Sequence record: MH752840.1
From: Escherichia phage vB_EcoM-Pr121LW
DNA length: 64,000 nucleotides
Reading direction: 5' to 3' (one strand)
Positions within the stretch are counted from its first letter, which is position 1; every line of letters starts with the position of its first letter. Position numbers and translations under genes: made by a program. Positions 4,183 through 64,000 of the stretch are shown here, piece after piece. The notes below the pieces were generated by a model. It was not told the DNA's origin. It worked only from the letters and a program-made list of their open reading frames with translations, and searched no databases.

Positions 4183-4195
4183 TAAAGGTCTCCTT

Positions 4196-4957
4196 TTAAA
4201 GTTCCATAAAGTTTTCTACAGTTTCAATAAATGCTTTATCAGAGAAAGCGTCAACAGCACCGTTAAACCATACAGGGATCCCGCGATCCTCATATTGATA
4301 AAGGTCGCTACGTGAAATGCCACTTCCATCTGCACTCTGCGAGTCATACTTGTTTACAATCAGCAGTTTTGTGCCTTTACAAGTAGCAGGAAACAATTCC
4401 CAGTTAAAATTAATAACTGTGTTAGAACAACCTACCAGGATCACCATATCATTGCTTGTGAGAGATGTCAACAGGTCATACATGTCTGTATACTTAGGAG
4501 CAACCTCACCGAAGAACACTACATTAGGCTTAACCCAGGTATACTTGCCTGTATCTACCTCCGTATATCCGATATTTTTAATTACATCGTTACCTTCAGC
4601 ATCTTCGTAGGTGATTTCAGGCAAATACCCGTGGACATGTAAAATATCTTCATGTTTTACACCAGCACGCTCCAGCAAATCATCTACATTGGTGGTAAGG
4701 TTGATCACACGACCAGACCAGCGGGAATACCACTCAGCGATCCGAAGATGTGCAAGGTTAGGATCAACACTGCCCAGAGCTACACGACGTGCATTGTAAA
4801 AGTCATGCACCTTATAGTAGTTCTTGGCAAAGGTGTGGATGTTGCACACCTCATCGATGCTGAAATTCTCCCACATTGCAGTGCTACCAGATCGGAAAGT
4901 GGGAATACCAGATTCAGCGCTCAAACCGGCACCGGAGATAATAATCAGTCGTCGCAT
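4196..4957 (-). CDS. Sir2-family NAD-dependent protein (sirtuin-like)
   Basis: 253 aa; GAGLSAESGIPTFR, TTNVDDL..AG, HVHG and VVFFGE motifs; no CxxC zinc-ribbon pairs seen after the HG motif. Confidence 0.8.
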   Translation of the reverse strand: MRRLIIISGAGLSAESGIPTFRSGSTAMWENFSIDEVCNIHTFAKNYYKVHDFYNARRVALGSVDPNLAHLRIAEWYSRWSGRVINLTTNVDDLLERAGVKHEDILHVHGYLPEITYEDAEGNDVIKNIGYTEVDTGKYTWVKPNVVFFGEVAPKYTDMYDLLTSLTSNDMVILVGCSNTVINFNWELFPATCKGTKLLIVNKYDSQSADGSGISRSDLYQYEDRGIPVWFNGAVDAFSDKAFIETVENFMEL

Positions 4958-4965
4958 AAGTGTCC

Positions 4966-5316
4966 TCAGTAGATGTTTTGTTTAATCTCTATTCCAAACT
5001 TCTTGAATGAGTCAGCAGCAAGCATAAATTTACGAGCTGCCGATGGATTAGAAGTATGTACGAAAATCTTCACGTTGTCAATCACTGGAGGCTTACCGAA
5101 TACAAATTTTTCCTCCAACATGGATAGGCAATCGTATCCTTCGAATACTTCTCCTAGGTCGTTGTCCATATGCCACTCAGAAACGCGTCTGTAGAGCTTT
5201 CCCTTATCGTTAATAAAATCCATAAACTCTGAGGAATTCTTCAGCCAAATAGCGTCTGGGAGTCCATAATTTGACGGATCTCTCAAATCATCCAGCCACA
5301 CAATCCACTTCTTCAT
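4966..5316 (-). CDS. hypothetical protein (possible RNA-repair-associated small domain)
   Basis: 116-aa ORF between the Sir2 and RNA ligase genes, overlapping the ligase stop; function inferred from context only. Confidence 0.4.
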   Translation of the reverse strand: MKKWIVWLDDLRDPSNYGLPDAIWLKNSSEFMDFINDKGKLYRRVSEWHMDNDLGEVFEGYDCLSMLEEKFVFGKPPVIDNVKIFVHTSNPSAARKFMLAADSFKKFGIEIKQNIY

Positions 5317-6248
5317 TGCATATAGTCCTCGTTGTGGAAATAGTAGTCCAGTATCTCACGACGCTCCTGCTCTAATAAGCAATTCCACACATCTTCTGTA
5401 TAGTTGCTACGAATAAATTTTACCATACCGTAAAACTCTTCGTCAACACGTTTAAAGATATCATCATCCCAAATCTTCCAAGCTTTACCCCTCATTACTG
5501 CCTTCCGTGCCAGATAGTATGGAGACTTGATCTTCAGCTGCAGATCATAAGGGTAGTAAGGCTTACGAATCATATACCCTTCACCTCTTGTTTCTGCAGC
5601 TAATTCTTTTGCATAGCTGAACGGAATTTCACGCACAGTGTGAGGACGTTTTGCACCAAGGTATTTGGCAATCCCATCTAAAGCTGCTTCTGGTAGCATT
5701 ATTCCAGAATCATTATATCTGCAACCTATCAAATATGCGCCATGATCTTCCTGAACAATATGCGGATCTGAAGGGTGGCAAATTTCAAACATGAATGTCA
5801 TGTTTTCATTGCCCATAACCTTCTTGATAAGATCTAAATTACCACATTGCTCCTTGATGGTTTCTTTTGCGAGGTTACAATATGGGGAATCAAGAGACCC
5901 GGTTGTTGAGAACAATAGTTCACCTTTATGAGATGATACCACACCGAGGAATCCGTTCTTTTTCTCTACCGCAGTAACAAGTTTACTGTCCGGTAGGTTG
6001 GTGGAGTTTTCTCCTAAGTTGAATACTTTTGTGAAAGGCCATGCCACAACATTCCCCTCATTGCCAACAACAATACCTCGGCACTCCAGTAAACGCGGAG
6101 ACAAATGCCACAGATCGTTGTAGAATACTTTTCTGGCATATTTATAGATCTTTAATCCAAGATCTGGATAATACCGACTGGTTACAAGACCTTTGTCTAC
6201 TAGGTCATCTGCATTAAAATACTTCATCATACGTTCCTCATTTGTCAT
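5313..6248 (-). CDS. RNA ligase 1 (T4 RnlA-like)
   Basis: 311 aa; LSPRLLECRGIVV and FTKVFNLGEN match T4 Rnl1 N-terminal motifs as I recall them; KxNG motif I (EKKNGFLG). Confidence 0.8.
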   Translation of the reverse strand: MTNEERMMKYFNADDLVDKGLVTSRYYPDLGLKIYKYARKVFYNDLWHLSPRLLECRGIVVGNEGNVVAWPFTKVFNLGENSTNLPDSKLVTAVEKKNGFLGVVSSHKGELLFSTTGSLDSPYCNLAKETIKEQCGNLDLIKKVMGNENMTFMFEICHPSDPHIVQEDHGAYLIGCRYNDSGIMLPEAALDGIAKYLGAKRPHTVREIPFSYAKELAAETRGEGYMIRKPYYPYDLQLKIKSPYYLARKAVMRGKAWKIWDDDIFKRVDEEFYGMVKFIRSNYTEDVWNCLLEQERREILDYYFHNEDYMQ

Positions 6249-6291
6249 TTTGTCAGTCTATCCTGCCACACAAATAACCTAGTGTCAACAC

Positions 6292-6320
6292 TTGAAATTA
6301 ACAAAACAGTTAGGTATACT
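6292..6320 (+). promoter_or_regulatory. sigma70-like promoter (TTGAAA-N17-TATACT)
   Basis: Consensus-like -35/-10 hexamers with 17-nt spacer upstream of the kinase gene. Confidence 0.45.
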
Positions 6321-6348
6321 ATCATTAAAATTAAAACGGAGGATTGCT

Positions 6349-6759
6349 ATGTCTAAAATGCTATATATCGTGCGTGGTCTGCCAGGGTCTGGCAAATCAA
6401 CACTGGCAAATGCGCTATCTTTAGAAGGTCTGTATCCACATTTTGAGAATGACATGTTTTGGTATGACGATGACGGCAATTACAACTGGGATGCAAGTAA
6501 AGTAACACTCGCAGCAAAATGGTGCAAAGATAACGTAGAAGATATGATGCGTATGGGATACGACCGTATCGTGGTAAGTAATACGTTTACAAAAGAAAAA
6601 CATGTGCAGGAATATGTTGACATGGCAATCAGTCATGGGTATAGTTATACCGTAATCGTGGTTGAAAACCGCCACGGTAATAAAAGCATTCATGATGTTC
6701 CAGACAAGGTTGTGGATCGTATGGAACGCCAGCTTAAAAACTGCATTAAACTTAAATGA
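6349..6759 (+). CDS. P-loop polynucleotide kinase-like protein
   Basis: Walker A GLPGSGKST near the N-terminus; start moved to the ATG at 6349 behind a GGAGG RBS. Confidence 0.6.
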   Translation: MSKMLYIVRGLPGSGKSTLANALSLEGLYPHFENDMFWYDDDGNYNWDASKVTLAAKWCKDNVEDMMRMGYDRIVVSNTFTKEKHVQEYVDMAISHGYSYTVIVVENRHGNKSIHDVPDKVVDRMERQLKNCIKLK

Positions 6760-6766
6760 GGAATGT

Positions 6767-7321
6767 ATGAAATACTTTGTAACAAGCGATACGCACTTTC
6801 TCCACCAGCGGGTCATGGAGTTTGATTCATGTCAAAAACACAGATCTCAATATGATCACAATCTTGACAGTATGAATGCGGGAATCATCACCGAGTGGAA
6901 CTCCGTTGTGTCACCTGCAGACACTGTGTTCCACCTGGGAGATATTGCGTGCACTAATGATAAGAATATCAACAACTTACTTCCAGATATTCTAAATATG
7001 TTGAACGGACATATTATTCTTGTTCGTGGCAACCATGACACAAGGACGACTGTCAGAATTATGAAAGAGTTCGGTCATGAGGTTGTAGATTATTACGAGC
7101 TTCGCCACAACAAGAATTTGATCTGTATGAGCCATTACCAGTTTGCAAAGTGGAACAGAAAGCCTCACGGATCAGTCCAACTGTTCGGTCATGCTCACGG
7201 AACCACACAACAGTTGTTTGGCAGGCAGCTTGATGTCGGTTGGGATGTGTGGGGGAGACTCTTACCATTAGAAGAGGCATACCGTATTGCAATGAGTTTT
7301 GATATTGACAGCAGGGAGTAA
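6767..7321 (+). CDS. calcineurin-like metallophosphoesterase
   Basis: VTSDTHF, HLGDIAC, GNHD and GHAH motifs; start moved to the ATG at 6767 behind a GAGGA RBS. Confidence 0.7.
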   Translation: MKYFVTSDTHFLHQRVMEFDSCQKHRSQYDHNLDSMNAGIITEWNSVVSPADTVFHLGDIACTNDKNINNLLPDILNMLNGHIILVRGNHDTRTTVRIMKEFGHEVVDYYELRHNKNLICMSHYQFAKWNRKPHGSVQLFGHAHGTTQQLFGRQLDVGWDVWGRLLPLEEAYRIAMSFDIDSRE

Positions 7322-7719: not shown

Positions 7720-7794
7720 ACCAGTAAAAACTTAAATATCTGTACTATAAGGGTTTGTATGTTTTATGTTCACCATGGAACAGAAACTATTAAC

Positions 7795-7875
7795 TGTCCG
7801 TGATACGGACACCACTGTCCGTCACGCGGACACATCTGCCCGTAATACGGACACTAACTGTCCGTGATACGGACA
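7795..7875. repeat. four palindromic 17-bp sites at about 21-bp spacing
   Basis: TGTCCGTGATACGGACA at 7795-7811 and 7859-7875, variants at 7816-7832 and 7837-7853. Confidence 0.8.
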
Positions 7876-8010
7876 CATAAAGAATATAACTAAAATAACT
7901 AAATAATAAAAAATAAAAGATCTAGTACTTATGGTACTAAGTACATATACTTAACTTATGTAGAATATACTAGATCCTAAGTACCATGTTTTAAATTTAT
8001 TACTTTCTAT
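7876..8010. other. AT-rich tract with local palindromes (possible unwinding element)
   Basis: Strongly AT-rich stretch right after the iterons; contains GTACTTA ... TAAGTAC inverted repeats. Confidence 0.35.
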
Positions 8011-8013
8011 AGG

Positions 8014-8258
8014 TAGTGTCGGCCCTTCATTGGCACTCGCCTACGAGGGGCGAGATGCCGGGCCTCCATAGTGCACACATGCAGGTCTGTTAACATGTGT
8101 GGGAGCGAAGCGGCGCAGGCCAAAGGCCGAGCACTAATGTGGACCACCGACGAAAGCTTGCCAGCGCCGTAAGGAGTCGGTTGAGAGCCTCCCGCGCGAG
8201 TTTGGATAAAGTTTATGTGTGGAAACGGACAATGAGGCCCCTAAATCGCTCCACAGCC
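8014..8258 (+). ncRNA. candidate structured RNA or long structured leader
   Basis: GC-rich ORF-free segment with several perfect hairpins (CTCGCC/GGCGAG; CACACATG/CATGTGTG) in an otherwise AT-rich region. Confidence 0.25.
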
Positions 8259-8358
8259 ATATAAACTATACCAAGTAAGGCAATCGCACCAGTTTGATAG
8301 AAAAGCTCGTTACAAAGCGATACAGCGAGTTTTTCTATAACTTGAAGAGGAGGCAGCT

Positions 8359-8937
8359 ATGAGTCCACGCAAAGATGACCGTGAAAAGATTGCAAAACGT
8401 TATCAGAATGAAGAACAGATGGAGAAAACTTTCAAGTGGAAGCCAGGTTTCCAGCGTAATCATTCTAACGCTCGTGATCGTAAGCATCCGGATAAGTGGT
8501 TAACACCGCCAAATGATGGCATGCAGGTTGGTGATGAGAAGGAGCTGTCACCTGGAAAAGATGGCAACTACATTCGCACTAAGGAAGCAGGTCCAAAGGA
8601 TGACAGCTATCTTGTAGATAAGGTTCTTGATGGTATTGATGTGGATGTTGACACTGCACGAAACCTTTTTCTTGGTTGGTATCGTACAGGGTTTTTCGAC
8701 ATCAAGGCTATTCGTCGTGTTTGCGATATTAAAAAGTCTGCCTATGATGATGACTCTCTACATCGCACTCTGAGACAATACTCAGAGAGATACGGTCATC
8801 CAGTCATCACTATTGACGATATTAACGAAGTGATGTATCATGCAGAGGTTGTTGCAGGTAGATTCGGTGATGCATATCTCGGTATTCTTTCTGCAAAAGA
8901 TGAGGTAATGTTAAATAAAATTTACTATGAACGCTGA
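8359..8937 (+). CDS. hypothetical protein
   Basis: 192-aa ORF behind strong RBS GAGGAGG; basic N-terminus. Confidence 0.5.
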   Translation: MSPRKDDREKIAKRYQNEEQMEKTFKWKPGFQRNHSNARDRKHPDKWLTPPNDGMQVGDEKELSPGKDGNYIRTKEAGPKDDSYLVDKVLDGIDVDVDTARNLFLGWYRTGFFDIKAIRRVCDIKKSAYDDDSLHRTLRQYSERYGHPVITIDDINEVMYHAEVVAGRFGDAYLGILSAKDEVMLNKIYYER

Positions 8938-8947
8938 GGAGCGCTTA

Positions 8948-9136
8948 ATGAACAACCCGGTAGCAAAGAACTGTAATAAGTTCAACAAGTCTGCAATTCA
9001 CACTGACAGGAAAAAGAGCTGGTCTCCTGACATTGACGAGGAGCTTGAGAGTTACTTTGAAGACCTGGTCACTAATGCAGATGAGGTTGCGATTAAAGAA
9101 TACGCAGACAGGAAGGATAAGGCCGGAATCTGTTGA
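8948..9136 (+). CDS. hypothetical protein
   Basis: Small ORF; start chosen at ATG 8948 behind GAGGAG. Confidence 0.3.
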   Translation: MNNPVAKNCNKFNKSAIHTDRKKSWSPDIDEELESYFEDLVTNADEVAIKEYADRKDKAGIC

Positions 9137-9161
9137 CAAAAATAGTGTTACCTGATAAGAT
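9133..9161 (+). promoter_or_regulatory. sigma70-like promoter (TTGACA-N17-TAAGAT)
   Basis: Consensus -35 with 17-nt spacer upstream of the 9213 gene. Confidence 0.4.
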
Positions 9162-9212
9162 CTGCAATATGATGTGATGCAATTTTAACTTACGAGGTCT
9201 ACAGGTAATGCT

Positions 9213-9455
9213 ATGTTTAAGGTTAAGCTCGTTTTTCGTTCCATGAATGAGGATTATTTAGAAGATGAAGGTGAATTTCGTGCACTGGATGATGCAATAG
9301 ATTTTGCCAACGACTTAGCTTGTATGAATACAGGTTATGGGCTATGCTGTTGGGATGGTGGTGTTCAGATCGGTGATAGCAAGATCTTCTACTTCTACCC
9401 TGAGCCTGATAACAAACAAATTAAGTATGTTTTATTTATTTGTGCTTTACAATGA
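9213..9455 (+). CDS. hypothetical protein
   Basis: 80-aa ORF downstream of the promoter at 9133. Confidence 0.4.
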   Translation: MFKVKLVFRSMNEDYLEDEGEFRALDDAIDFANDLACMNTGYGLCCWDGGVQIGDSKIFYFYPEPDNKQIKYVLFICALQ

Positions 9456-52923: not shown

Positions 52924-55900
52924 ATGCTTCCAATCCCTTTGCTAAAACTTGGTCGTCATTTCCTCGATAAGAGGGGTGGAATTAAGGAACTTGCTGTTCT
53001 GTCATACCCAATAGACAACAGTGATGGTACAAGCAATACAGTATCCTATGTAAATAGCTTAGCTATACTTTTTGATGATGGTCAGCTTAATATTACTGGC
53101 TATAATAGGTTCGGAGAGTGTCGGACTGGAGATCTTGATACAATAAACTATCCTAATGAGGCAGCTTGGAACGTAGACCATGTTTGGAGAGCTGACCGTG
53201 CATTTGTAATCCGCACATTCGATAATAAATTTTTCTATATTGGTTGCACAGCTGGTCTTATCGGATCTGAGGCAGCAGGTGGAAACGATGTTTGTGTCAG
53301 AGAGTGGACACCTTTGCCGGAACAGATTGTAACAGGGTTGCATTTGGACACCCATCCTGAGAGACTTGTTGAAGTAATGGGTGGCGTAAACAATACAGTG
53401 TGGGTAATTGCTGCACCAGAGGCTGATGGTATGCTTCACCTGTACGGCTCTGGCAATAATACTTACGGCTCTCTTCATGTTGACAAAAATCAACACGCTA
53501 CTCCAGTTAAGATTGGTGAAACATCTGAAAGTCCAGAGACAGGTCCTTGGAAAAATCCAAGAATTAATTGTGAAGTTCATGACAACTCGGTTATTTTTGG
53601 TGGTCCTAACGGATTCTGGATTGCAGGTTACGATTTCTTAAGAAATAACAGCAAAAACGCACTAGTTTATCCAGCCGAGCATGTGACTCTTGACCAGTTT
53701 AAAGGCATCCCAGTGGGCGAGACATGGAAAGGGTTCATGTGTGGGCCTAATGGTGCAATTATAGCCACAGAAAGGATGCACAAACCTGATGACCAACAGC
53801 TTGTTAATGTGTTTTATGGTCAGGATGTTTGGGGTGACGACACGTGGAGAAGCCTTAACATCACCTATACCCATGAAGTAATTATGGCTCGCGGGTACGG
53901 GACTAGTGGAATTTTCTTCAATAATGGTACAAAACAGTACCGTGGTTTCTCCAGAAACCTGTGTAACGATATTGGTGCTCAATCTGCTAATAATAATCCT
54001 AGGGCCAATTTTATTCATTACAGAGCGCTGGCAACAGCTAAGTTTGTTGAACAGACAGAGCCAGTAAGCTGGACAGAAAGCGTTTATTTTCAAGGGATCC
54101 ACAGGGAAGGTTTCTTAGGCACATTTTGTGTGGTAAATGGAAAGCTTTGGTGGTCAGGAATACCACGTGGTAGTTTTTCAGGATCTAATAACCTCTTTGG
54201 CGGCAGACTTAACAGCCAAGGGTTCACAGAGATTCCGGAGAATTGGTATAAAAATGTCCCGGTAGATAGCTGGGGTATCGAAGACATCTTTGATGTCAAT
54301 GGTGTGAGCAATGCTAGCAACATTTACATTGGAGATACTGTCAAGATGAAATTGAAACCTCAGCCGGAGGGTGCTACGTTCATTATTGACAAGATTGAGT
54401 TGGTAAATGCTGCAGGCACTGTTGTTACAGATGCAAACTATCAGTTCTCCACTAACTGGAACCATGGTGGTGCTAACGAAGTTGTGGTTACCCAGTATAA
54501 CCGTAACATCAACAGACGTGGTTTGTATTCTATCAAGATCACCTACCATGACAAGCATGGCACTGGAAGAACCTATACGACAAGGACTTTGAACTGGAAC
54601 ACTATAGTTCCTGCGTATCCGTCCGACGGCAAGTGGCATACCGTTGGTAGAAACAAGCAGTTCCATGTTAACGATACTGTATACTTTGGGCTGAATGGGA
54701 CCCAGCCTGCAGTAGAAGGGGATACATCGTATATGGTCAGACTCCACAGAATGGATGCTGGATCAGTCACTTATGATGTGACCCAAGAGATCTACGATCA
54801 AAGACGCGCCACGTATGACAATATTGTGAAAACACAAGCCTTGTGGGAGTTCAATCCCAATGGCAAGGGTGGTAAAATGTTGCAGGTTAATGAGCAGAAC
54901 GGAACGTCGTTGACTGTTCACGAACACCCAGACCCTTGGCCTGATCCTGGAAAACCTCACCCGGGAGCTCGTACACTGAAAATTGTCAGCCATGATGCAG
55001 GATATTTCGGAATACGCTGGGAAGCCACAGTAAGATATGCCGACGGGACAACAAACAACATAGGGATCACCCTTGGTGGCACTAGTGAGGATAACTCACT
55101 GAAAATTGCCTATACCCCTAGAGGCATCTCTATTGATAATATGGATGTTGTTCGCAACGGTTACGGTGATGTAAATGTCAAAGTTACTCTTGGTGAACAT
55201 CTCGGTGGGGAAAGGATCATCATGTATGCCTTTGATCATGATCCTCGCACCAACGGAACCTATGCAAATCAGGCGTGGAGTTACCTGATAAATGCACCTG
55301 AGCCGAATACTAAAGAGTTTTATTACGGTATGAAGCGGGATGTGTGCAAGAAAACAGGGACACATGATTGGATTGCTATCTGCGTTAAAGATGAACGAAC
55401 CGCTTGGGACGAGCCTGTTAACCGATGGTTCATAGGGATTCCCACCAGAAGTGATAAGTATGTCGCAGAATATATTGTGTGCATGGGCGGCACCAACCTG
55501 AACTTGTGTTGGAACGAGGATGCAAATAAATACTCTGATTATGACTATATGAGGGATATCTCTTGCAATCAGTGGTTTAGCCAATCAACAGGTTACCCTC
55601 CAAGACAGGCGAGAGTAAACCCTGCAATCTTCACAGACACGCAGGTTTTCTTGACAAAACAGGCCAACGAGGTTCAGACATTCAAGAATAAATACGATCC
55701 TAACAAGTGGTTCTACAACTGTTACGGCGCATTTTTCTGGGGACCTGGTGAGTTACCTGGTGGAGGATCTTGCTTGAATGAGGCAACTTACGCCAGTGAC
55801 TACATCATGGGGCAGGTCAAGAAGTATAAGATAATCCCCGGTCCTGAGACTTTGGGCAATGCCGTTGACCCTTATATCATCATGACTGCACTGAGATCAA

Positions 55901-58560
55901 ACATGGATGGGACATCCATGTCCATGCAAATTCCGGTAACAAACGGATACAAACGTGTTGTGATGATCATTAAGTGCGACCTGATAGGTAAACAAGTTCT
56001 TGCAGAAAACGGGACATCCACACATCCTTTTGAGATCGCTCTACACTATCAGTTTGCTGACTCACCTTTTGCAGGGGATAAGAGAATATCTGATACAGAC
56101 GCACAGCGTTGTAAGAAAGTATTGTTGGGTGCAGGTTGGTGGTGGTATGAGTTTGATTTAACAGATAAATTCACCGACACGTCTAAAGTTGTAACAGGAC
56201 TTCGTCTAGACTTTGGCGAGAACATGCACAAAGCTGTTTGTGATGGCACCTATGGTGACCCTACAATATACCTAAAATATGTTTCTTTTGAGCATCCGGA
56301 AGATGTTGTCTACGGTCCAAAACTGAGATTGTTTGGCAGCTGGATTGCAAAAGATAGGGTAGGTATGGGTAAGAAGGTAAGAGGGTTCTTGGTTGATGCA
56401 GGAACAGAAGACATGCTGGTTAATGCAGTATGGCCTGAATTACCTGGGACTCAGTGGGACAACTCAGCCAAATCTGTAAACTGGTTTAACATTCATAGGG
56501 CCATGTGGACCACTAACTGCTACTTGTGGAGAGAGCTTAACGATCAGGCCTTTGGCTTCAGCGATGGTAGAAGGATGGCGATCATTTGCTGGACAACACT
56601 GCAAAGATGTTATGACCATAACTATGAGATTGGAGGCAGGGAATGGAAAAATATCAGGGACAGAATCATAACCAATTTTGCAGACGACAACGGTGGCGGA
56701 GCACATAACTTTGGCACAAGCCGACTCATCCATTTGAACGGATCCTCAGCCTACAAGAAAGAAGGATACTCTGGGTCCATGATTGAGTGGGGTCTGGTAA
56801 AAGATGCTCGTGTGTTGATGGGTCAGCAACTTGCTGCTGCAATAGGGCCGAACGCAGTACAATCTGTTAAACCAGCGTGGTTCGATATCCCATTATGGTC
56901 ATCTGGAACACCAGGAACTGCTGCAATCAACCCTGCCACTGGGGATTTGGAAATCTCCTGGGAAGACTTGAAGCAGGTCGGTGGTTGGGACAAAACAGGG
57001 TATCAGGTTCAGTGGTGGAGAGCTGACGGATCTTTAGCCGCTGATGAGTTTGTTAAGGACAATTTCTACACCATGTCCTCTGCAAAAGCACAGGAATTGT
57101 TCGGTCAGGCAACTCCGTCAACGATCACCATGTCCATGTGCTGTAAAGACAACAGGACTGGAGCTTTGGGGCCAAGGGTTGCTAAGGTTTTCTCAGGTAT
57201 TAAATGGAATCCCTCTGTTCAAAGTGTTTCATGGAAGCAAATAGGTGATAACAAGCTGCTAGTTACCCCCGCCTGTCAGTTCAACGCAACTCTTAACGTT
57301 GATCCTGCTGCTGCGGCAAACTCAGCTAAAGCTTCTGACTTCTCTGTGTCTAACACTGCTATGGCAGATGTGAGGAAGATTGACACGCTGAACGCCAGAA
57401 TTACCTGTAAAAACACTTATGGCACATTCCAGATCATCAACAACTTCACAGATGCTGATTCTAAGGTAGTGAGGACAGCAAGCCAGACTCTGAGTTTAGG
57501 AACTCTGGCCTATGCAGCCCTGATCACTGAACAGTCGGCAACACTCCAAGGAGGTGGTGTAGGCAAGTCTATTACAACACCTGTGTGGAAGCCAAATGAG
57601 TGGGTTGTGTTTGATTTGACTGTGGACTTCTCCAGTGATAATAACTGGACATGGGTAAGGGATTGCTTGTCACAACTGATGGGTGGTCCAAGCTCCGTTA
57701 GTGATAGCCACGACTCCACTGACCCGAGTGTGTTTCAGGTGGGTAAAACTCACCCGGAGACTGGAGCAACTTTGCCTGACAGGAAGTATGCTTTGGTTTG
57801 CATCTCTTACGGAAAAGCAGATGTCACCTTCTCAGGAACACACACTTATAACGGTACATATAACTTCTCAAGGAAGTATAGTCTCAAGGCAGGGAACATT
57901 ATAGATGAGGTTGGTCCGTTATATAACCCTGGCAACGGGATAGGGATTGTAGGCGGCAAACTGCAGATGCAGGAACCTTCTATTACTCCTTCCAACGTGT
58001 CTGGGATCAGGAAGACTTGGGAAAGTAACAATACTGGCATCGCAACTGTGGATGCTACCACCGGACTGGTAACATTTAAAGCTCCCGGTGATGTCACTAT
58101 AACGTTTATAGTTACTGATGATGCAGGGCGCAAAACGTCTTCAACATCTTTTACTGTCAAACAGATGGCACCACAGTGGAGAATGTGGATAGGTACAGCA
58201 ACAAACGGGGCATACCCTAATCCGGCAGGTACTTCTGGTATGAAGACTTTCTCTACAAGCGAACCGATGGAGTACGGCAGCGGTCCTAAGGTAGGACAGA
58301 TGGTATACTTTGGTGCGTATATTCCTGAAATTATAGGGCTTCCGAGAAGTCAGCTTCAGTTGCTGTTTGGGGCTGGTGTTGACGATCTTGCCACTTTCGG
58401 GTATAGCGACAACATCGAGGCTGCAAGGAGTTCAGGATGGGTAGGGTTCAGAATGGAGTCTGGAAAGGAAGGCAGGATTCTAGGGACAGCCTCTATAGGT
58501 GTTATGTTCCCTGGTGACCAGCAGTATCGCCTGAAAGCCTACGCAACTTTCTCTCTTTAA
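52924..58560 (+). CDS. giant virion-associated protein with Ig-like (Big_2-type) domain
   Basis: 1878-aa uninterrupted ORF behind a GGAGAA RBS; Ig-like segment SGIRKTWESNNTGIATVDATTGLVTFKAPGDVTITFIVTDDAGRKTSSTSFTV near the C-terminus. Confidence 0.55.
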   Translation: MLPIPLLKLGRHFLDKRGGIKELAVLSYPIDNSDGTSNTVSYVNSLAILFDDGQLNITGYNRFGECRTGDLDTINYPNEAAWNVDHVWRADRAFVIRTFDNKFFYIGCTAGLIGSEAAGGNDVCVREWTPLPEQIVTGLHLDTHPERLVEVMGGVNNTVWVIAAPEADGMLHLYGSGNNTYGSLHVDKNQHATPVKIGETSESPETGPWKNPRINCEVHDNSVIFGGPNGFWIAGYDFLRNNSKNALVYPAEHVTLDQFKGIPVGETWKGFMCGPNGAIIATERMHKPDDQQLVNVFYGQDVWGDDTWRSLNITYTHEVIMARGYGTSGIFFNNGTKQYRGFSRNLCNDIGAQSANNNPRANFIHYRALATAKFVEQTEPVSWTESVYFQGIHREGFLGTFCVVNGKLWWSGIPRGSFSGSNNLFGGRLNSQGFTEIPENWYKNVPVDSWGIEDIFDVNGVSNASNIYIGDTVKMKLKPQPEGATFIIDKIELVNAAGTVVTDANYQFSTNWNHGGANEVVVTQYNRNINRRGLYSIKITYHDKHGTGRTYTTRTLNWNTIVPAYPSDGKWHTVGRNKQFHVNDTVYFGLNGTQPAVEGDTSYMVRLHRMDAGSVTYDVTQEIYDQRRATYDNIVKTQALWEFNPNGKGGKMLQVNEQNGTSLTVHEHPDPWPDPGKPHPGARTLKIVSHDAGYFGIRWEATVRYADGTTNNIGITLGGTSEDNSLKIAYTPRGISIDNMDVVRNGYGDVNVKVTLGEHLGGERIIMYAFDHDPRTNGTYANQAWSYLINAPEPNTKEFYYGMKRDVCKKTGTHDWIAICVKDERTAWDEPVNRWFIGIPTRSDKYVAEYIVCMGGTNLNLCWNEDANKYSDYDYMRDISCNQWFSQSTGYPPRQARVNPAIFTDTQVFLTKQANEVQTFKNKYDPNKWFYNCYGAFFWGPGELPGGGSCLNEATYASDYIMGQVKKYKIIPGPETLGNAVDPYIIMTALRSNMDGTSMSMQIPVTNGYKRVVMIIKCDLIGKQVLAENGTSTHPFEIALHYQFADSPFAGDKRISDTDAQRCKKVLLGAGWWWYEFDLTDKFTDTSKVVTGLRLDFGENMHKAVCDGTYGDPTIYLKYVSFEHPEDVVYGPKLRLFGSWIAKDRVGMGKKVRGFLVDAGTEDMLVNAVWPELPGTQWDNSAKSVNWFNIHRAMWTTNCYLWRELNDQAFGFSDGRRMAIICWTTLQRCYDHNYEIGGREWKNIRDRIITNFADDNGGGAHNFGTSRLIHLNGSSAYKKEGYSGSMIEWGLVKDARVLMGQQLAAAIGPNAVQSVKPAWFDIPLWSSGTPGTAAINPATGDLEISWEDLKQVGGWDKTGYQVQWWRADGSLAADEFVKDNFYTMSSAKAQELFGQATPSTITMSMCCKDNRTGALGPRVAKVFSGIKWNPSVQSVSWKQIGDNKLLVTPACQFNATLNVDPAAAANSAKASDFSVSNTAMADVRKIDTLNARITCKNTYGTFQIINNFTDADSKVVRTASQTLSLGTLAYAALITEQSATLQGGGVGKSITTPVWKPNEWVVFDLTVDFSSDNNWTWVRDCLSQLMGGPSSVSDSHDSTDPSVFQVGKTHPETGATLPDRKYALVCISYGKADVTFSGTHTYNGTYNFSRKYSLKAGNIIDEVGPLYNPGNGIGIVGGKLQMQEPSITPSNVSGIRKTWESNNTGIATVDATTGLVTFKAPGDVTITFIVTDDAGRKTSSTSFTVKQMAPQWRMWIGTATNGAYPNPAGTSGMKTFSTSEPMEYGSGPKVGQMVYFGAYIPEIIGLPRSQLQLLFGAGVDDLATFGYSDNIEAARSSGWVGFRMESGKEGRILGTASIGVMFPGDQQYRLKAYATFSL

Positions 58561-58571
58561 CAAGCGGTAAA

Positions 58572-58601
58572 TAAAAAGGGGCCAAATGGCCCCTTTCTTT
58601 T
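58572..58601. terminator. bidirectional rho-independent terminator
   Basis: Palindrome AAAAAGGGGCC-AAAT-GGCCCCTTTCTTTTT between convergent gene blocks. Confidence 0.75.
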
Positions 58602-58606
58602 TATAA

Positions 58607-58807
58607 TTAGTAATATTCCCAACACGACCCATCTTCAGACGGCTGGACACGCTTGCCTTCATGATCGACATAGGTGTAACCGCAACCTTCGCAGATAACA
58701 GGTGCCGCATAACCTTCCTTCCACTGATCTTCTGTGATCAATCCTTCCAGATCTCTACAGTTAAAACCAAACAACTCTTCAGAACAATCTTTGCAAAAAT
58801 CAGCCAT
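58607..58807 (-). CDS. small zinc-ribbon protein
   Basis: 66 aa with CKDC ... CEGC cysteine pairs. Confidence 0.45.
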   Translation of the reverse strand: MADFCKDCSEELFGFNCRDLEGLITEDQWKEGYAAPVICEGCGYTYVDHEGKRVQPSEDGSCWEYY

Positions 58808-58810
58808 TTC

Positions 58811-59257
58811 TCAGTCCTCGCATTTAACAAATTTTTCTACAGATCCGCCAAGCACAGCTTGTTGCTTGATGGCACTTGCTTCATCATAGTGGATAGACTT
58901 ATGTTCCGTACCTCCAAACTTACCTGTGTGGAAGGTGTGCACCCAAATCTCTTTAGGAAGGGATTTATTCTCTTCCTCCACCAACTCCCACATACCCCAC
59001 AAGTGATCTGTGATATCTTTGATGAAATATCCCTCTCCTAGGTTTGTATTCACACTATAGGCCGATTCGTGATTTCCGCAAATATAACGGAAGGCAGTGT
59101 ACTCTTTTCCTGGTGTGAAGTGGGTATCCATTAGTATAGCTGTTAAAGAATAAGGGTCTCGAAAGCCCAAGAACTTTAGTTTAACAATTTCGACATTTAC
59201 ATCTGCAAGATTGTCCATGACGATCTCCTCTGTTTGGTTGGTGAGATAATCATACAT
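58811..59257 (-). CDS. hypothetical protein
   Basis: 148-aa ORF in the minus-strand block. Confidence 0.4.
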   Translation of the reverse strand: MYDYLTNQTEEIVMDNLADVNVEIVKLKFLGFRDPYSLTAILMDTHFTPGKEYTAFRYICGNHESAYSVNTNLGEGYFIKDITDHLWGMWELVEEENKSLPKEIWVHTFHTGKFGGTEHKSIHYDEASAIKQQAVLGGSVEKFVKCED

Positions 59258-59382
59258 AGATCTGATGTTAGGGTCAAGCTTAATTTTAAACTATTTTGGA
59301 GAGGTATTTTGTTCAGGAGGGTAATCACATAGGATAGGGCAATTTATGAAGGCACAGGCCTCTTTTGAGGCCTTAAAATCGA

Positions 59383-59763
59383 TTATGACACTTTGACGTA
59401 GCGCTCCGACAGAGCTGGAAAGCCAAAAGCAGTACCTATACTACCGTATGCTACCCACCATTGAAGTTCATCGTGACACCATTTTCCGATCAGGAAGGTG
59501 CTGGGGTAGCGGGTCAGTATTTTGGCATAAGCTTTAGGGTCTGCATCCTCTGGGATAATGATGCTTGGAACATCTTTGTTATGACCACAGCAGCAGTTTA
59601 GAGTTTTCAGTCCTGCCGCCCATAGACTCATGATAGGCTTAGCCATGCACTTATCAAGGCACACACGTTTTTTGCCGTCTCGAAGTTTTTTAGGCACATC
59701 AACGATAACATTTGGATGCTTGGCACCTTTCACTTTCCAATTATAGGATTTACACTTGCACAT
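59383..59763 (-). CDS. Cys-rich hypothetical protein
   Basis: 126 aa with CKCK ... CLDKC ... NCCCGH motifs. Confidence 0.4.
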   Translation of the reverse strand: MCKCKSYNWKVKGAKHPNVIVDVPKKLRDGKKRVCLDKCMAKPIMSLWAAGLKTLNCCCGHNKDVPSIIIPEDADPKAYAKILTRYPSTFLIGKWCHDELQWWVAYGSIGTAFGFPALSERYVKVS

Positions 59764-59795
59764 CGTTTAATCAGTCTCCATCTAGAAAGCAATAC

Positions 59796-59967
59796 TTTAC
59801 TTAAAATCTTTGTCACCTATTACGATTGCACGAATCCACTCATTGTGATGTTCAATGGCGGTAAGGTGTAACATAATGTAGTGATTGTCATTACTAAACA
59901 CGGTGCGGTAAGCTTTAGCAGCACCATGATATAACTTCCACATCAGGTAATGATATCTTCGCCTCAT
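59796..59967 (-). CDS. small hypothetical protein
   Basis: 56-aa minus-strand ORF behind GGAG, filling the gap between flanking genes; below the ORF-track size cutoff. Confidence 0.25.
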
Positions 59968-59972
59968 GGCTC

Positions 59973-60443
59973 TTACTCCGGTTCAGGATCTGGGTAATCT
60001 TCAATAATAAAGGTCCATCCGTTCCGCTTAGCCTCAGACTTATACTCAATCTCCTTCATTGCGAACTCTAACTGATTTTTAGCCGGAATACATGCCGGAG
60101 AATCATCAATCCAAATATCCGGGTAGATATCAAACTGCGCCAGATAGGCTGCCTTCTGAACACCGCCAGTATAAAACACACCAACATCGAGCTCCTTGCG
60201 CCAATACTCAATGTCCACGTTGTCTTGAGTGATGAATCGGGAAGTCACAAGGTATACTGTCCACCCTTCCTTTTTCAAGTCCCTAATCAGGCGGGAGAAG
60301 ATGAAAGGACTCGCATTAAATGTTCCATCAAAGTCAATGGCAATGATGTGTGTGCCGTGGCGAGTCTCGTATGGATTGCTTGTGGTAAGATTACTGTAGT
60401 TAAAAGGAACTTCTTCCCCGCAGTAGCTGTAGTCCATATTCAC
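59973..60443 (-). CDS. HAD-superfamily phosphatase
   Basis: Motif I IAIDFDGTF (DxDGT), motif II LVTSR, motif IV IWIDDSP. Confidence 0.55.
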   Translation of the reverse strand: MNMDYSYCGEEVPFNYSNLTTSNPYETRHGTHIIAIDFDGTFNASPFIFSRLIRDLKKEGWTVYLVTSRFITQDNVDIEYWRKELDVGVFYTGGVQKAAYLAQFDIYPDIWIDDSPACIPAKNQLEFAMKEIEYKSEAKRNGWTFIIEDYPDPEPE

Positions 60444-60715
60444 ACCTTCTCGTTGATAAATTTACGGGCGGTTTGGTGAGTTGTTTCTGCTGTCTTCAGA
60501 ATGATATTAATTTTATTGTCAAGATCATTCATCTCTGCAGTTAATTCAGGAATCTCTCCAGCATGCATAGTGAAATCATACATAGACATGCCCAGAATCT
60601 CATTGATGCGACGGTTGCATTCTGCAGCACGCTGGTTCATTTTCCAAGCTAACACCAAAGCCTCCTGCGTAGCCTCTAGTGCAAAATCTAATACGTCTGC
60701 CTCTTCTTTCGTCAT
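60440..60715 (-). CDS. hypothetical protein
   Basis: 91-aa ORF overlapping the downstream start; helical. Confidence 0.4.
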   Translation of the reverse strand: MTKEEADVLDFALEATQEALVLAWKMNQRAAECNRRINEILGMSMYDFTMHAGEIPELTAEMNDLDNKINIILKTAETTHQTARKFINEKV

Positions 60716-60773
60716 CTCAGTCTCTCCTGTTGTATTGTTGGTAGGTGTATGAATACCTTATAACTCACCTTTT

Positions 60774-61340
60774 TTATTCAAACTGCAATAGTAAGTCCAC
60801 CACCGCGCTAGGTCTGTCAACAAATTCCCCAGGTCCACATGCCCACAGAGGGTATCCGTCCACATACCGCCAAATCCAACCTGCAGTGTGGAGTTCGAGC
60901 AGGGCAGTACCGTCCTTACTGTCAACCACTCTTTCCCACAGTGTTGGGCAGCGAAGCTTGAGAATCGGATCACCTCCCTTATACCCGTCCATGTAGATAC
61001 CTATTGCAAAGTTCAGCATCATCTTTTTGTGCACTGATCTCTTACTGAGGGTGCTCATCACTTCCTCTTTGTGAATGTTTGTAAGCTTCTCTTTGGCTAC
61101 CCGCAGATCGTTGCAACCATTGTTCAGCAGATCTTCCAGACACTTGATCCGGAGGTCGTGAATGTCTTTGTCGTGTACCGTTGGCACAGGGTCGTAGCGG
61201 TATAGCACTGTTGATACAAGGTTGCTCGGGTGTGGGTCTGACAGCAACCCATAACCCCAATACTCTTCTGTATCTGAAAGGACAAGACACCCAATGTCTC
61301 TGTCAAGCTTTCCTGTGTTGTAAGCCACATTGACCGCCAT
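60774..61340 (-). CDS. hypothetical protein
   Basis: 188-aa ORF in the minus-strand block. Confidence 0.4.
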   Translation of the reverse strand: MAVNVAYNTGKLDRDIGCLVLSDTEEYWGYGLLSDPHPSNLVSTVLYRYDPVPTVHDKDIHDLRIKCLEDLLNNGCNDLRVAKEKLTNIHKEEVMSTLSKRSVHKKMMLNFAIGIYMDGYKGGDPILKLRCPTLWERVVDSKDGTALLELHTAGWIWRYVDGYPLWACGPGEFVDRPSAVVDLLLQFE

Positions 61341-61342
61341 GA

Positions 61343-61588
61343 CTATAGCTCCACTAGCAAAGTGCTTTCAAAGTGCCGTTCATGCAGACCGTTGTAAGGG
61401 ACCACTTCCACAACACCATCACGGACATACGGGGCCATCATCGTGGTATAATCTCCAAACGGGTTGGTATTGTCACTAACCACAACCACCTTCTGCCCTT
61501 CCTTAGCAGAGTGCCAAATAGATCTACACTTCATCAGGTGTTCGAGAGCTCCAGGTAAAATTTTGTTACGTTCTTTACGGGTCTTCAT
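61343..61588 (-). CDS. hypothetical protein
   Basis: 81-aa ORF tightly packed with neighbours. Confidence 0.35.
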   Translation of the reverse strand: MKTRKERNKILPGALEHLMKCRSIWHSAKEGQKVVVVSDNTNPFGDYTTMMAPYVRDGVVEVVPYNGLHERHFESTLLVEL

Positions 61589-62034
61589 AACAGATATAGC
61601 TCCTTATGAAAGTGGTCTTTTAATTTCTCACTGAGAAACTTCTTGATACCTTCCTCTAAAGTGTTTTCGATGTAGTCCAGCTTAACTGCTTCGATGGACA
61701 TATCATAGATTGCCAGCTCTAAGCTGTCAAGTCCCATCATAGCATGAACCATAAGATTTTCATCTTCAGATACATTCAGGGGACTTCCTATAACATCTGG
61801 AGGCAGAATAGTTTCCCAATTATTCTGGGTGGTAGTTCTCCCGCCATCTACTTTACGGCGCAGTTCGAATGTGTTCTTAGTGTAGAACACTTCATAAGAA
61901 ACGATACGACTGTCACTCTCATAATAAACGAAGTTCAGGTAGGAGCCTAGCCGCAGTCGGCAAACTTCTACCCCAAACCATTGTTTCTTATAAGAATTCA
62001 GGCTAATGCTGTCGCATTCACGCTTGCTCAACAC
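61585..62034 (-). CDS. hypothetical protein
   Basis: 149-aa ORF overlapping the downstream start. Confidence 0.4.
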   Translation of the reverse strand: MLSKRECDSISLNSYKKQWFGVEVCRLRLGSYLNFVYYESDSRIVSYEVFYTKNTFELRRKVDGGRTTTQNNWETILPPDVIGSPLNVSEDENLMVHAMMGLDSLELAIYDMSIEAVKLDYIENTLEEGIKKFLSEKLKDHFHKELYLL

Positions 62035-62050
62035 GGCTATCTCCTTTTTG

Positions 62051-62284
62051 TTAATCTTCGTAAATCAGGATTTCTGCTTTAGGTTTTCGTGCTTTCAAGT
62101 CCAGCTCTATCCAGTGCACCATGGCTGTTTCAAGAAAAACAGCTTGGATGCATCCGTCCTCAGCGTGCCCCACCAACATAACAAGATCTTCACCTTCATC
62201 ATCTGCATCACGAACATACAGAATCTCTCCAGATTCAAAGTCTTTCACAACCTGATTGCTGGATAATTTACGAATTTTTGCCAT
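62051..62284 (-). CDS. hypothetical protein
   Basis: 77-aa ORF. Confidence 0.35.
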   Translation of the reverse strand: MAKIRKLSSNQVVKDFESGEILYVRDADDEGEDLVMLVGHAEDGCIQAVFLETAMVHWIELDLKARKPKAEILIYED

Positions 62285-62285
62285 A

Positions 62286-62549
62286 TCAGAAACCCTCTAA
62301 AAAGCTCTTGTAGAAAATAATTTCAGTGTCCACACCTGTCACGATCTTATCGTTTCGGATCTCATCTGTGAGGTAGGTATCGAAACGTAGTACTTGTGTG
62401 GTATTGTCACACATCCACTCAGCTGTGACCATAGCGAAAATCTTAGCATCTTCATTATCTGGTGTGAATGTTACCACCTCGCCGCATTTAAACTTTTCGA
62501 TAGGTTGTGTGTTAGCTTTCGGTTCTGCAATAGTGATTTTCGTGGTCAT
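62286..62549 (-). CDS. hypothetical protein
   Basis: 87-aa ORF. Confidence 0.35.
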   Translation of the reverse strand: MTTKITIAEPKANTQPIEKFKCGEVVTFTPDNEDAKIFAMVTAEWMCDNTTQVLRFDTYLTDEIRNDKIVTGVDTEIIFYKSFLEGF

Positions 62550-62809
62550 TGCTCTTCCTCCATAGTTTCACCAAATACTTCGATACGAGCATCGAGCTCG
62601 GTTGCTTTCAGCTCCCCAACAAAATATTTTAGTTCTTTCTCGTCCAGATCGTAAGCCCACACACAAGAAGAACATGCCACAATCAGTAGCGTAGATACAC
62701 GACCTGGCTCTGTGATCATGCTCACAATGGTTCCCACAGGGAACGTGTTGATAGCTTTTTTAACTGGGCGTTCAGCTTTAATTACTACCTCTGTTGCCAT
62801 AAATAACAT
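62546..62809 (-). CDS. hypothetical protein
   Basis: 87-aa ORF overlapping the downstream start. Confidence 0.35.
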   Translation of the reverse strand: MLFMATEVVIKAERPVKKAINTFPVGTIVSMITEPGRVSTLLIVACSSCVWAYDLDEKELKYFVGELKATELDARIEVFGETMEEEQ

Positions 62810-62815
62810 CCTCTC

Positions 62816-63982
62816 TTACTTAGCGTACTCGATTAATTCCACAGTTTTACCAAAGCTAGGGATATAATTTTTATTATACCCTTCGGTTAGAACCCATAAA
62901 GTATCGTACTTTTTCCACTTGTTGTCAACAGCCTTTTGTTCAAAGTTATGCTCAAAGTATAGGTCGGTCAGGACGATGACATCTTTTGCATTCGGTATGT
63001 TAGCATCCAGATACTCGAACACGCAAGCAGCTGTTGTGCCCCATGTTGAGTGGACCTCATAGTTGATCATCTCGTCTATGTTGCCGCGAGTGTATACTTT
63101 AACCTCTCCAACCTCAGTTGACCAACAGAACATTGTAACCTTAAACTCTTTATACAGATTGCACAATCCTGTGATTTCATTGAACATTTTCTTTAAAGTT
63201 CTTTGAGAGATCGAGCCAGAAACGTCCAAAGCCACCACAATATCTATAGTGTTTTCCGGATTACGACCAGGAACAATAACGTGTTGGTTCTTGTTTATAG
63301 CTCCGACTTTTCGCATTGTGCTGGTCAAAGACCCAGATCGGCGACCAGGTTTTCTGTAGGTCAGTTCGGCCTTTCTTTTAGACAACATACGCTGCTTGAT
63401 GATGTCTATATAATTGATTACAGGCTTACCTCTATTCTTGACAAACTCACGAACCGCCTCAGGGCAACGACCTCCGGAAGCTTGCATTGCTGCCTCAAGC
63501 ATGTCACCAGAGTCCTGCATGGCCTGATCTTTATCAGATTGGCTGATTACAGGTTGTGGCTGATCATACCCCATCGCCTTTCCAAGATCATCACTAGTGC
63601 CACCGTTACCACTCATGTGATCGTCGGTTTGTCGTTTATCTCCTTGAGAGTTCTCGCCTTTACCGCTCTTACTTTTACCGTTATTCTGATCTCTTTGCTT
63701 ATCAAGAACTGCATAAACGTTCTCAGCAATCCATCCATGAAACTTCATGTCGCAGTAGCAGCTGGCTAAGAAGCCAAAAGGCTTACCTTTCACGAACGTA
63801 GTGCTTTTCCCCTTCGGGAAGAAAACACAAGGAGGTTTGCTAAAGTCAACCACAAGGCCTGTGTTGATAACGTGATCACAAGCAATATTGAACAGTTCCG
63901 GCTCAAAGCTTTTACCACGGACCAGGTGATCACAGATAATATGCCCCACCTCATGTGACAGAAGGAAGGCCACCTCTTTCAC
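62816..63982 (-). CDS. metallopeptidase-like plus von Willebrand factor A domain protein
   Basis: N-terminal HEVGHIICDH (HExxH-like) and C-terminal MIDAS-like motif ALDVSGSIS; 388 aa. Confidence 0.55.
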   Translation of the reverse strand: MKEVAFLLSHEVGHIICDHLVRGKSFEPELFNIACDHVINTGLVVDFSKPPCVFFPKGKSTTFVKGKPFGFLASCYCDMKFHGWIAENVYAVLDKQRDQNNGKSKSGKGENSQGDKRQTDDHMSGNGGTSDDLGKAMGYDQPQPVISQSDKDQAMQDSGDMLEAAMQASGGRCPEAVREFVKNRGKPVINYIDIIKQRMLSKRKAELTYRKPGRRSGSLTSTMRKVGAINKNQHVIVPGRNPENTIDIVVALDVSGSISQRTLKKMFNEITGLCNLYKEFKVTMFCWSTEVGEVKVYTRGNIDEMINYEVHSTWGTTAACVFEYLDANIPNAKDVIVLTDLYFEHNFEQKAVDNKWKKYDTLWVLTEGYNKNYIPSFGKTVELIEYAK

Positions 63983-64000
63983 AGATTTTGGGGAATAGAA

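Follow-up and report, generated by a model that had tools for sequence, protein, structure and literature searches.

Predicted metallopeptidase-VWA and candidate capless HAD phosphatase genes in a probable non-late unit of the rV5-like phage vB_EcoM-Pr121LW

We analysed a stretch of 64,000 nucleotides (nt) from Escherichia phage vB_EcoM-Pr121LW (record MH752840.1; the whole stretch is called the window here) and describe the block of genes that occupies positions 58607-64000 on its minus strand. A scan of 58607-63982 for open reading frames (ORFs) returned thirteen on the minus strand, exactly the set of small ORFs listed in an earlier reading made without database searches (the sequence-only reading). 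As that reading stated, the genes are tightly packed, with ~95% of 58607-64000 coding, although they are not mostly overlapping; the gene-to-gene gaps are 3, 125, 33, 5, 2, 58, 2, -4, 16, 1, -4 and 6 nt, such that only two of the 12 junctions overlap, or three if the HAD gene described below began at GTG. The two genes of main interest encode a metallopeptidase-VWA protein and a stand-alone HAD phosphatase-like protein.

The first of these, at 62816..64000 (minus strand), belongs to the rV5 gp12 and N4 gp25 family, in which a DUF2201_N zincin metallopeptidase domain is combined with a DUF2201 VWA domain. The sequence-only reading had described a protein of 388 amino acids (aa) with an HExxH motif and a C-terminal VWA domain; the domains and motifs stand, but the length does not, as the reading frame is still open at base 64000 and the window end truncates the gene. 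The full-length protein has 486 aa in relatives, and the window carries its C-terminal 394 codons (residues 93-486). Because the ORF lacks its start inside the window, what had looked like an HExxH-like N-terminus is the middle of the zincin domain. Scored on a full-length relative that is 98-99% identical, the Pfam models DUF2201_N (PF13203; E 1.3e-28, 100.8 bits against a cut-off of 23.2) and DUF2201 VWA-like (PF09967; E 2.7e-11, 44.1 bits against 26.4) both lie above their curated cut-offs, in agreement with the VWA and DUF2201-type assignments proposed earlier. The HEVGH motif (H108-H112), in which the zincin domain has its zinc-binding and catalytic residues, was located from the sequence and a homologue alignment at 63941..63955 on the minus strand, with a further conserved histidine, H117, at 63926-63928. 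H108 and H112 do not vary among 19 homologues (24-82% identity), in which the conservation of E109 and H117 is 90% or higher. The DxSxS element of the metal-ion-dependent adhesion site (MIDAS) of the VWA domain, here DVSGS (D351/S353/S355), was found in the same way at 63212..63226 (minus strand); the MIDAS threonine falls within 63032-63043 and the MIDAS aspartate within 62957-62971. D351, S353, S355, G413-T414 and T437-D438 are invariant in the same 19 homologues, whose alignment also shows a long low-complexity linker joining the zincin and VWA domains. Judged by these profiles and alignments, the large protein of the block is a DUF2201-type metallopeptidase-VWA protein with a predicted peptidase activity.

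Two matters of annotation concern this family. DUF2201 metallopeptidase-VWA proteins are often labelled 'HNH endonuclease' (phrog_1314; RefSeq N4 gp25, L167:3665-4807), which looks like a propagated mis-annotation. The rV5 record shows a 441-aa gp12 and an overlapping 81-aa gp13 at 7756-9217, where vB_EcoM-Pr121LW and other relatives have a single 486-aa ORF. This split is probably a frameshift or sequencing error; if it were real, the end of the VWA domain would be lost.

The second gene, at 59973..60437 (minus strand), encodes a capless minimal HAD-superfamily phosphatase-like protein (rV5 gp21; phiEco32 gp47 family; phrog_4919). Its start is most likely the ATG at 60437, giving a protein of 154 aa like rV5 gp21. 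All four HAD motifs are present in order on the minus strand: motif I, DFDGT, at 60335-60321; the threonine of motif II in VTSR at 60248-60237; K97 of motif III at 60155-60153; and the aspartate pair of motif IV in IDDSP at 60110-60096. Together with HEVGH and DVSGS, every motif named in the sequence-only reading could thus be read in the window. A word-based search with the HAD protein found five relatives only; a HMMER profile search found 933 cluster representatives (50% identity), mostly 90-130 aa long and aligned to query positions 30-120. In an alignment of 45 sequences with 22-66% identity and a mean column identity of 12%, there is no variation at D37, D39, T41, R69, K97 and W111, and conservation reaches at least 90% at T67, D113 and D114. 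The catalytic motifs also hold in 10 sequences that include fusion proteins. The HAD motifs pointed out in the sequence-only reading are thus conserved across the family, and membership of the HAD superfamily is likely, to a degree that we consider high, from motif conservation rather than from fold. In PHROGs the protein falls in families labelled as of unknown function. The assignment newly annotates a large family, so far without a label, inside a known superfamily, and would give a testable function to two 'unknown function' PHROG families and to proteins mislabelled as polynucleotide kinase.

A MoxR-type AAA+ partner for the peptidase-VWA protein had been predicted to lie past the window end. 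Near-identical genomes do encode such a partner, but not as a neighbour: the gene, for an ATPase of 394 aa, is ~3.6 kb from the peptidase gene, on the opposite strand and in a divergent unit. With phmmer the ATPase matches 360-aa proteins that bear AAA_3/AAA_5 domains (E ~1e-45, 35% identity), and a 35%-identical homologue passes the AAA_3 model (31.7 bits against 27). Invariant in 40 ATPase sequences are GxxGxGKS (G37, G39, K40, S41), D108-E109, N146, R147, R164 and R220. An AlphaFold2 (AF2) model of the protein has a predicted local distance difference test score (pLDDT) of 85, and the top 16 entries of a Foldseek comparison of this model with the PDB are NorQ (including NorQ with the NorD VWA domain) and CbbQ2, with the MoxR entry 2r44 ranking 20th. 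Since the phmmer matches, the conserved residues and the AF2/Foldseek comparison together identify the 394-aa ATPase, the prediction of a MoxR-type partner was right.

The two genes belong together. We surveyed 80 IMG/VR loci encoding an ATPase homologue, 70 of which have enough downstream DNA, and a DUF2201 gene is present in all 70. In 68 of them it follows the ATPase gene directly on the same strand, with a gap of no more than 300 nt in 66, although most of the 68 loci with adjacent pairs are akin to one another and are not independent events. The split divergent layout occurs in only two of the 70, both Vequintavirus-like. Adjacency is also seen in a 35%-identical 146-kb contig (L089). ATPase homologues were found in 744 phage records and the DUF2201 protein in 671, and the two counts nearly match in most of the commonest phage genera. 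Both the peptidase-VWA gene and the ATPase are already annotated in rV5, and the pair itself has been described computationally before, such that only its split arrangement and its non-late setting are new.

The same two families are represented by gp24 and gp25 of phage N4. N4 gp25 matches DUF2201_N at 3e-87 and DUF2201 at 1e-46, and its hhalign alignment with the rV5-type protein runs over the full length (probability 100, E 5.6e-46); N4 gp24 is matched by the rV5-type ATPase at E 9e-21. In N4, gp24 is followed by gp25 as an adjacent and co-directional gene, whereas in rV5-type phages the two lie in divergent units ~3.6 kb apart, and the rV5-type protein is ~100 aa longer than N4 gp25, with an insert before HExxH and the low-complexity linker. 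Both N4 genes are middle genes, and they are two of the 14 core genes in N4-like phages (Schitoviridae), with function listed as unknown (PMC4193335). Iyer et al. 2021 described a MoxR ATPase with a vWA protein carrying an N-terminal metallopeptidase in group 2.2 jumbo phages (PMC7824862). That pair has the same domain architecture and pairing as the rV5-type one, and jumbo phages such as phAPEC6, 7t3 and RaK2 are matched by both our ATPase and DUF2201 queries. It differs in that the jumbo-phage genes are adjacent and were given a virion-assembly role, whereas here the genome has 137 kb and the pair is split, in a non-late setting.

Among cellular systems, NorQ-NorD, CbbQ-CbbO and RavA-ViaA likewise combine a MoxR ATPase with a VWA partner, and the phage VWA domain has an intact MIDAS. 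The cellular partners NorD, CbbO and ViaA have no peptidase domain, however, and their job is metal insertion or enzyme remodelling. The phage ATPase differs from cellular MoxR proteins in an extra helical C-terminal region of ~130 aa and in falling below the Pfam AAA_3/AAA_5 cut-offs. The best mechanistic model for the phage pair is NorQ-NorD, in which the VWA domain inserts a finger into the pore of the hexameric MoxR ATPase, the C-terminus provides a further contact, and the linker that ties the VWA domain to the remainder of NorD is remodelled by ATP hydrolysis (PMC13036017).

The block would be the promoter-distal part of a non-late unit, equivalent to rV5 genes 11-26 and probably read by the host RNA polymerase. 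The rV5 reference paper places the counterpart of the block as genes 12-26 of a proposed transcription unit 11-26, and reports promoters located between gene 10 and gene 11 (PMC3606486). The arrangement in genomes near-identical to vB_EcoM-Pr121LW is similar: beyond the window end an Srd-like gene adjoins the peptidase gene and heads the unit, and is followed by a divergent intergenic region of 140 bp with back-to-back sigma-70-like sites. At the other end of the block, between the convergent tail-fibre gene (end 58560) and the last gene of the block (end 58607), sits a bidirectional intrinsic terminator hairpin (58568..58603) with a 9-bp G+C-rich stem, 17-nt arms, and an A-run and a T-run on opposite flanks; its rV5 counterpart is a bidirectional terminator separating genes 26 and 27 (PMC3606486). 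The motif TGGTAAAATA, allowing one mismatch at most, occurs 23 times in the window where 5.9 +/- 2.5 are expected. Twenty of these matches are on the plus strand at 12.6-56.8 kb, in the structural-gene module, and none is in 58607-64000; this pattern is in line with the late-promoter-like motif described for genes 27-66 of rV5.

Through its N-terminal part the Srd-like gene itself (325 aa; L001:14812-15789, minus strand) matches Srd anti-sigma and 'decoy of sigma70' PHROGs. Endonuclease VII-type PHROGs are matched too, and the PHROG to which the gene belongs is labelled 'HNH endonuclease'.

Gene neighbourhoods elsewhere bear on when the pair acts. In N4 and in metagenomic contigs replication and nucleotide-metabolism genes surround the pair, and in other viral contigs its flanking genes are those of a 5'-3' exonuclease and a thymidylate synthase. 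Taken over three phage groups, gene position points to an early or middle, intracellular task. We lean to such a task because of the unit context, the absence of the late motif, and the replication neighbours in N4 and the metagenomic contigs; the client would more likely be a protein of the host or a phage protein of the replication phase than a head or tail protein undergoing late maturation.

We therefore consider it rather probable that the non-late unit provides a two-protein ATPase/peptidase-VWA machine together with an early-acting capless HAD phosphatase. The peptidase-VWA protein would be the adaptor and protease half of the machine and the MoxR-class ATPase the other half. If NorQ-NorD and CbbQ-CbbO are a guide, the VWA domain may dock on the hexameric ATPase and, with its intact MIDAS site, grip an acidic residue of the client protein. 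ATP hydrolysis would then pull on the linker, and the zincin domain would be positioned or unmasked to cut the client.

Several points tell against this interpretation. The ATPase partner was read in near-identical relatives, the sequence of vB_EcoM-Pr121LW analysed here ending at base 64000. In Pfam the ATPase reaches AAA_5 at 16.4 (gathering threshold 22) and bpMoxR at 15.8 (gathering threshold 27), both sub-threshold, and the AAA_3 model gives no match at E ≤ 0.1. A search of PDB sequences with the DUF2201 protein found no related solved structure. Promoters sought by consensus gave 16 matches, barely above the 9.8 +/- 2.9 of shuffled controls. We found no experimental work on any phage member in the literature on DUF2201 and on N4 gp24/gp25 function. 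The HAD component, for its part, has no dominant gene neighbour among 40 lineages of viral contigs in which genes within 6 kb were surveyed.

An assembly role for the pair is possible, albeit on the doubtful side: the two proteins could be a morphogenetic chaperone-protease that assembles and trims a part of the virion. Iyer et al. 2021 propose this for the same architecture, taking Acidianus two-tailed virus as the analogue and envisaging a chaperone of virion assembly that also carries out peptidolytic processing (PMC7824862). The pair of that virus, p618 (MoxR) and p892 (VWA), is likened to the phage pair by its description in the same paper (PMC7824862) and has an experimentally supported role in tail development, although the host is archaeal and p892 has no zincin domain. 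Roseophage RPP1 has virion-protein genes beside its gp24/25 homologues, and in the window the peptidase-VWA gene is only ~4 kb from tail-fibre genes. Yet that gene is opposite in strand to the structural module and stands in a unit without the late-promoter-like motif that is enriched there, and the neighbours in N4 and in 68 metagenomic contigs are those of replication and nucleotide metabolism. Neither protein has mass-spectrometric evidence in rV5 virions, which is a weak point that counts little, because a chaperone need not be packaged.

Whichever client it serves, the pair is one of few that N4-like podophages, rV5-like myophages and several jumbo phages have in common, and is core in the N4-like phages. 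Its split arrangement in rV5-like phages would let each half be deleted alone, and rV5-like BASEL phages infect E. coli K-12, a host with standard genetic tools. None of the findings made here changes current concepts, and they amount mainly to a correct reading of known kinds of genes.

The HAD protein would be an early-acting, capless, Mg-dependent phospho-aspartyl phosphatase, most probably acting on a nucleotide monophosphate or on a phosphorylated nucleic-acid end. The sequence-only reading had suggested that it supplies a 3'-phosphatase missing from the kinase at 6349, or else is an unrelated nucleotidase. Neither is established, and no PNKP, HAD_SAK or NT5C model is matched. The premise of a missing phosphatase fails, because the kinase (AAA_33, 6349-6759, plus strand) is followed directly by the gene of a calcineurin-like phosphoesterase (6767-7321, plus strand). 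Both belong to an RNA-repair/NAD-related cluster at 3469-7321 of the window, which on the minus strand also has genes for a MazG-like protein (3469-4182), a sirtuin (4196-4957), a cREC domain protein (4966-5316) and an Rnl1-type RNA ligase (5313-6248). The same neighbourhood was described for phage V5 by Iyer et al. 2022 (PMC9503650).

That the HAD protein is nonetheless a polynucleotide 3'-phosphatase of phage RNA repair, as a partner of the Rnl1-type ligase and of the kinase at 6349, appears unlikely. The absence of a cap would suit large substrates, and capless HADs typically act on macromolecular substrates. One family member (P0145) is fused to a cREC cyclic-phosphate-processing domain, and in an 8.5-kb viral contig (L043, 991-5332) a 92-aa mini-HAD gene has an RNA-ligase-like gene on one side and, on the other, homologues of the window's phosphoesterase (E 1e-29) and kinase (E 4e-22), all on the same strand. 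Some GenBank records, moreover, label the HAD gene 'polynucleotide kinase'. This label is unsupported, because the HAD family profile does not align with T4 PseT: hhalign gives a probability of 0.7%, albeit against a single-sequence template and thus with low sensitivity. Besides having a phosphoesterase already beside the kinase, the RNA-repair cluster is ~53 kb from the HAD gene, and neither HAD_SAK (HAD_SAK_1/2) nor PNK3P is matched. The 40 lineages point the same way, with an RNA ligase within 6 kb in only two and a kinase near the mini-HAD gene in one; no kinase adjoins the HAD gene here. Other neighbours are a 5'-3' exonuclease in six lineages, ThyX, ribonucleotide reductase and PolA in five each, and MazG-like proteins in three plus three. 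We regard a mononucleotide as a somewhat more likely substrate of the HAD phosphatase than a polynucleotide 3' end.

The mini-HAD also occurs, with its catalytic residues intact, in fusion proteins whose N-terminal half is a prohead serine protease of the Caudovirus type (Peptidase_S78, E 1e-26 to 1e-33) and whose C-terminal half is the mini-HAD. This fusion was found in 17 viral contigs and four contigs of metagenome-assembled genomes, in Planctomycete-type phages; examples are L080:1700-2683, L171:5482-6507, L176:561-1517 and L178:3311-4288. The family further includes tandem HAD-HAD proteins (P0161, P0168, P0252, P0258, P0261; L169:1234-2058). Prohead proteases get built into procapsids, and because they do so the phosphatase may be capsid-borne in the fusion phages, which may fit an enzyme that is needed at the very start of infection. 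We offer only tentatively, and with low expectation, the broader suggestion that the mini-HADs are an unrecognised class of early-acting phage phosphatases, made right after infection, as would be the case here, or carried in the capsid, that serve counter-defence. If so, a mini-HAD could dephosphorylate damaged nucleic-acid ends or a nucleotide signal of the host, a function different from ordinary nucleotide salvage.

It seems quite improbable that the HAD-like ORF is instead a small Rossmann-like protein whose likeness to HAD motifs is coincidental or non-catalytic, although several searches that also count against an early-acting phosphatase would agree with it. Pfam gives no match to the protein at E ≤ 0.1, TIGR01484 reaches only 14.8 bits against a cut-off of 41.8, and thus no curated HAD model of Pfam or NCBIfam was reached. 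The AF2 model has a pLDDT of 60, and Foldseek finds no significant match for it in the PDB. A search of PDB sequences with the single protein gave nothing useful, and when 45 family members were compared with HAD models at E ≤ 0.01 the only match was a weak one to a 5'-nucleotidase. Set against this, the four motifs are invariant or nearly so in spite of the low mean column identity of the family, in the fusions too, and in the AF2 model they lie exactly at the C-terminal ends of three strands (1, 2 and 4) and where the helix preceding strand 4 begins. The sub-threshold sequence matches all fall on HAD members, namely TIGR01484, AphA and, over the whole domain, 2OBB, and align motif to motif. 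The model also indicates that there is no cap, because strand 1 and helix 1 are only nine residues apart. The motif order and the absence of a cap insert are shared with the capless (C0) HADs, such as BT0820 (2OBB), the KdsC/KDN9P phosphatase group and the phosphatase domain of T4 Pnkp. The alignment with 2OBB covers the whole HAD domain with the motifs in register, but at E 0.28 or worse, and the core of the mini-HAD, at ~90 aa, is small beside chains of 142 aa in 2OBB, 164 aa in the KDN9P phosphatase and 172 aa in KdsC.

The block as a whole is well conserved. Each of its thirteen products matches a PHROG at E ≤ 1e-33, and the ORFs are therefore real genes and not chance ORFs. Over its full length of 5.5 kb the block is 95-97% identical to more than 100 genomes of rV5-like Vequintavirus phages, and the same thirteen genes are annotated after the tail-fibre gene in the relatives AlexBoehm and O157 typing phage 4. 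The sign of the GC skew flips at ~58-60 kb, the point at which the coding strand switches, and a composition scan of the window shows no anomaly in the block. Six block proteins, including the DUF2201 and HAD proteins, and the neighbouring Srd-like protein had no match among PADLOC defence models; the ATPase had one weak match, to DpdH (E 5.6e-4). A mobile accessory island of superinfection-exclusion or anti-defence morons, as opposed to conserved phage core, can be set aside as very improbable: the genes are indeed small, acidic and unannotated, as is typical of early accessory regions, and the small ORFs fall in narrow PHROG families, but synteny is kept across those more than 100 genomes, the DUF2201, Srd-like and HAD genes stay together in six diverged lineages, and neither the PADLOC scan nor the composition speaks for an island.

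The other eleven genes of the block, all on the minus strand, are mostly small and acidic and may encode small accessory proteins. None has a match in Pfam, NCBIfam or PADLOC, consistent with the sequence-only reading, which saw no recognisable motifs in them. Downstream of the peptidase-VWA gene the first three encode small acidic proteins of 87 aa (62546..62809, phrog_10698), 87 aa (62286..62549, phrog_12861) and 77 aa (62051..62284, phrog_12046). They are followed by genes for proteins of 149 aa (61585..62034, phrog_6790), which has no Pfam match and for which the 'tail protein' label of its PHROG is unsupported, 81 aa (61343..61588, phrog_4868) and 188 aa (60774..61340, phrog_12232), and by one for an acidic, probably helical protein of 91 aa (60440..60715, phrog_12604). 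Beyond the HAD gene are those of a basic 56-aa protein (59797..59967, phrog_12006), a basic 126-aa protein with eight cysteines (59383..59763, phrog_12958) and a protein of 135-148 aa (58811..59257, phrog_15992), for which the shorter start is annotated in relatives. The last gene of the unit (58607..58807, phrog_2210) encodes an acidic 66-aa protein with a CxxC...CxxC, zinc-ribbon-like arrangement. There is no paralogy among the thirteen block products, and when Rfam families and repeats were sought in the block only the terminator hairpin turned up.

The convergent tail-fibre gene (52924-58560, plus strand) encodes a lateral tail-fibre protein of 1878 aa and ends 47 nt short of the block. 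Elsewhere in the window, at 1559-2842 on the minus strand, is a gene for an ATP-dependent DNA ligase with DNA_ligase_A_M and OB domains. Sixteen 'Campylobacter phage' records (MG0656xx, host C. jejuni) are ~96% identical to E. coli rV5-like phages over the block, and their assignment to a C. jejuni host looks doubtful.

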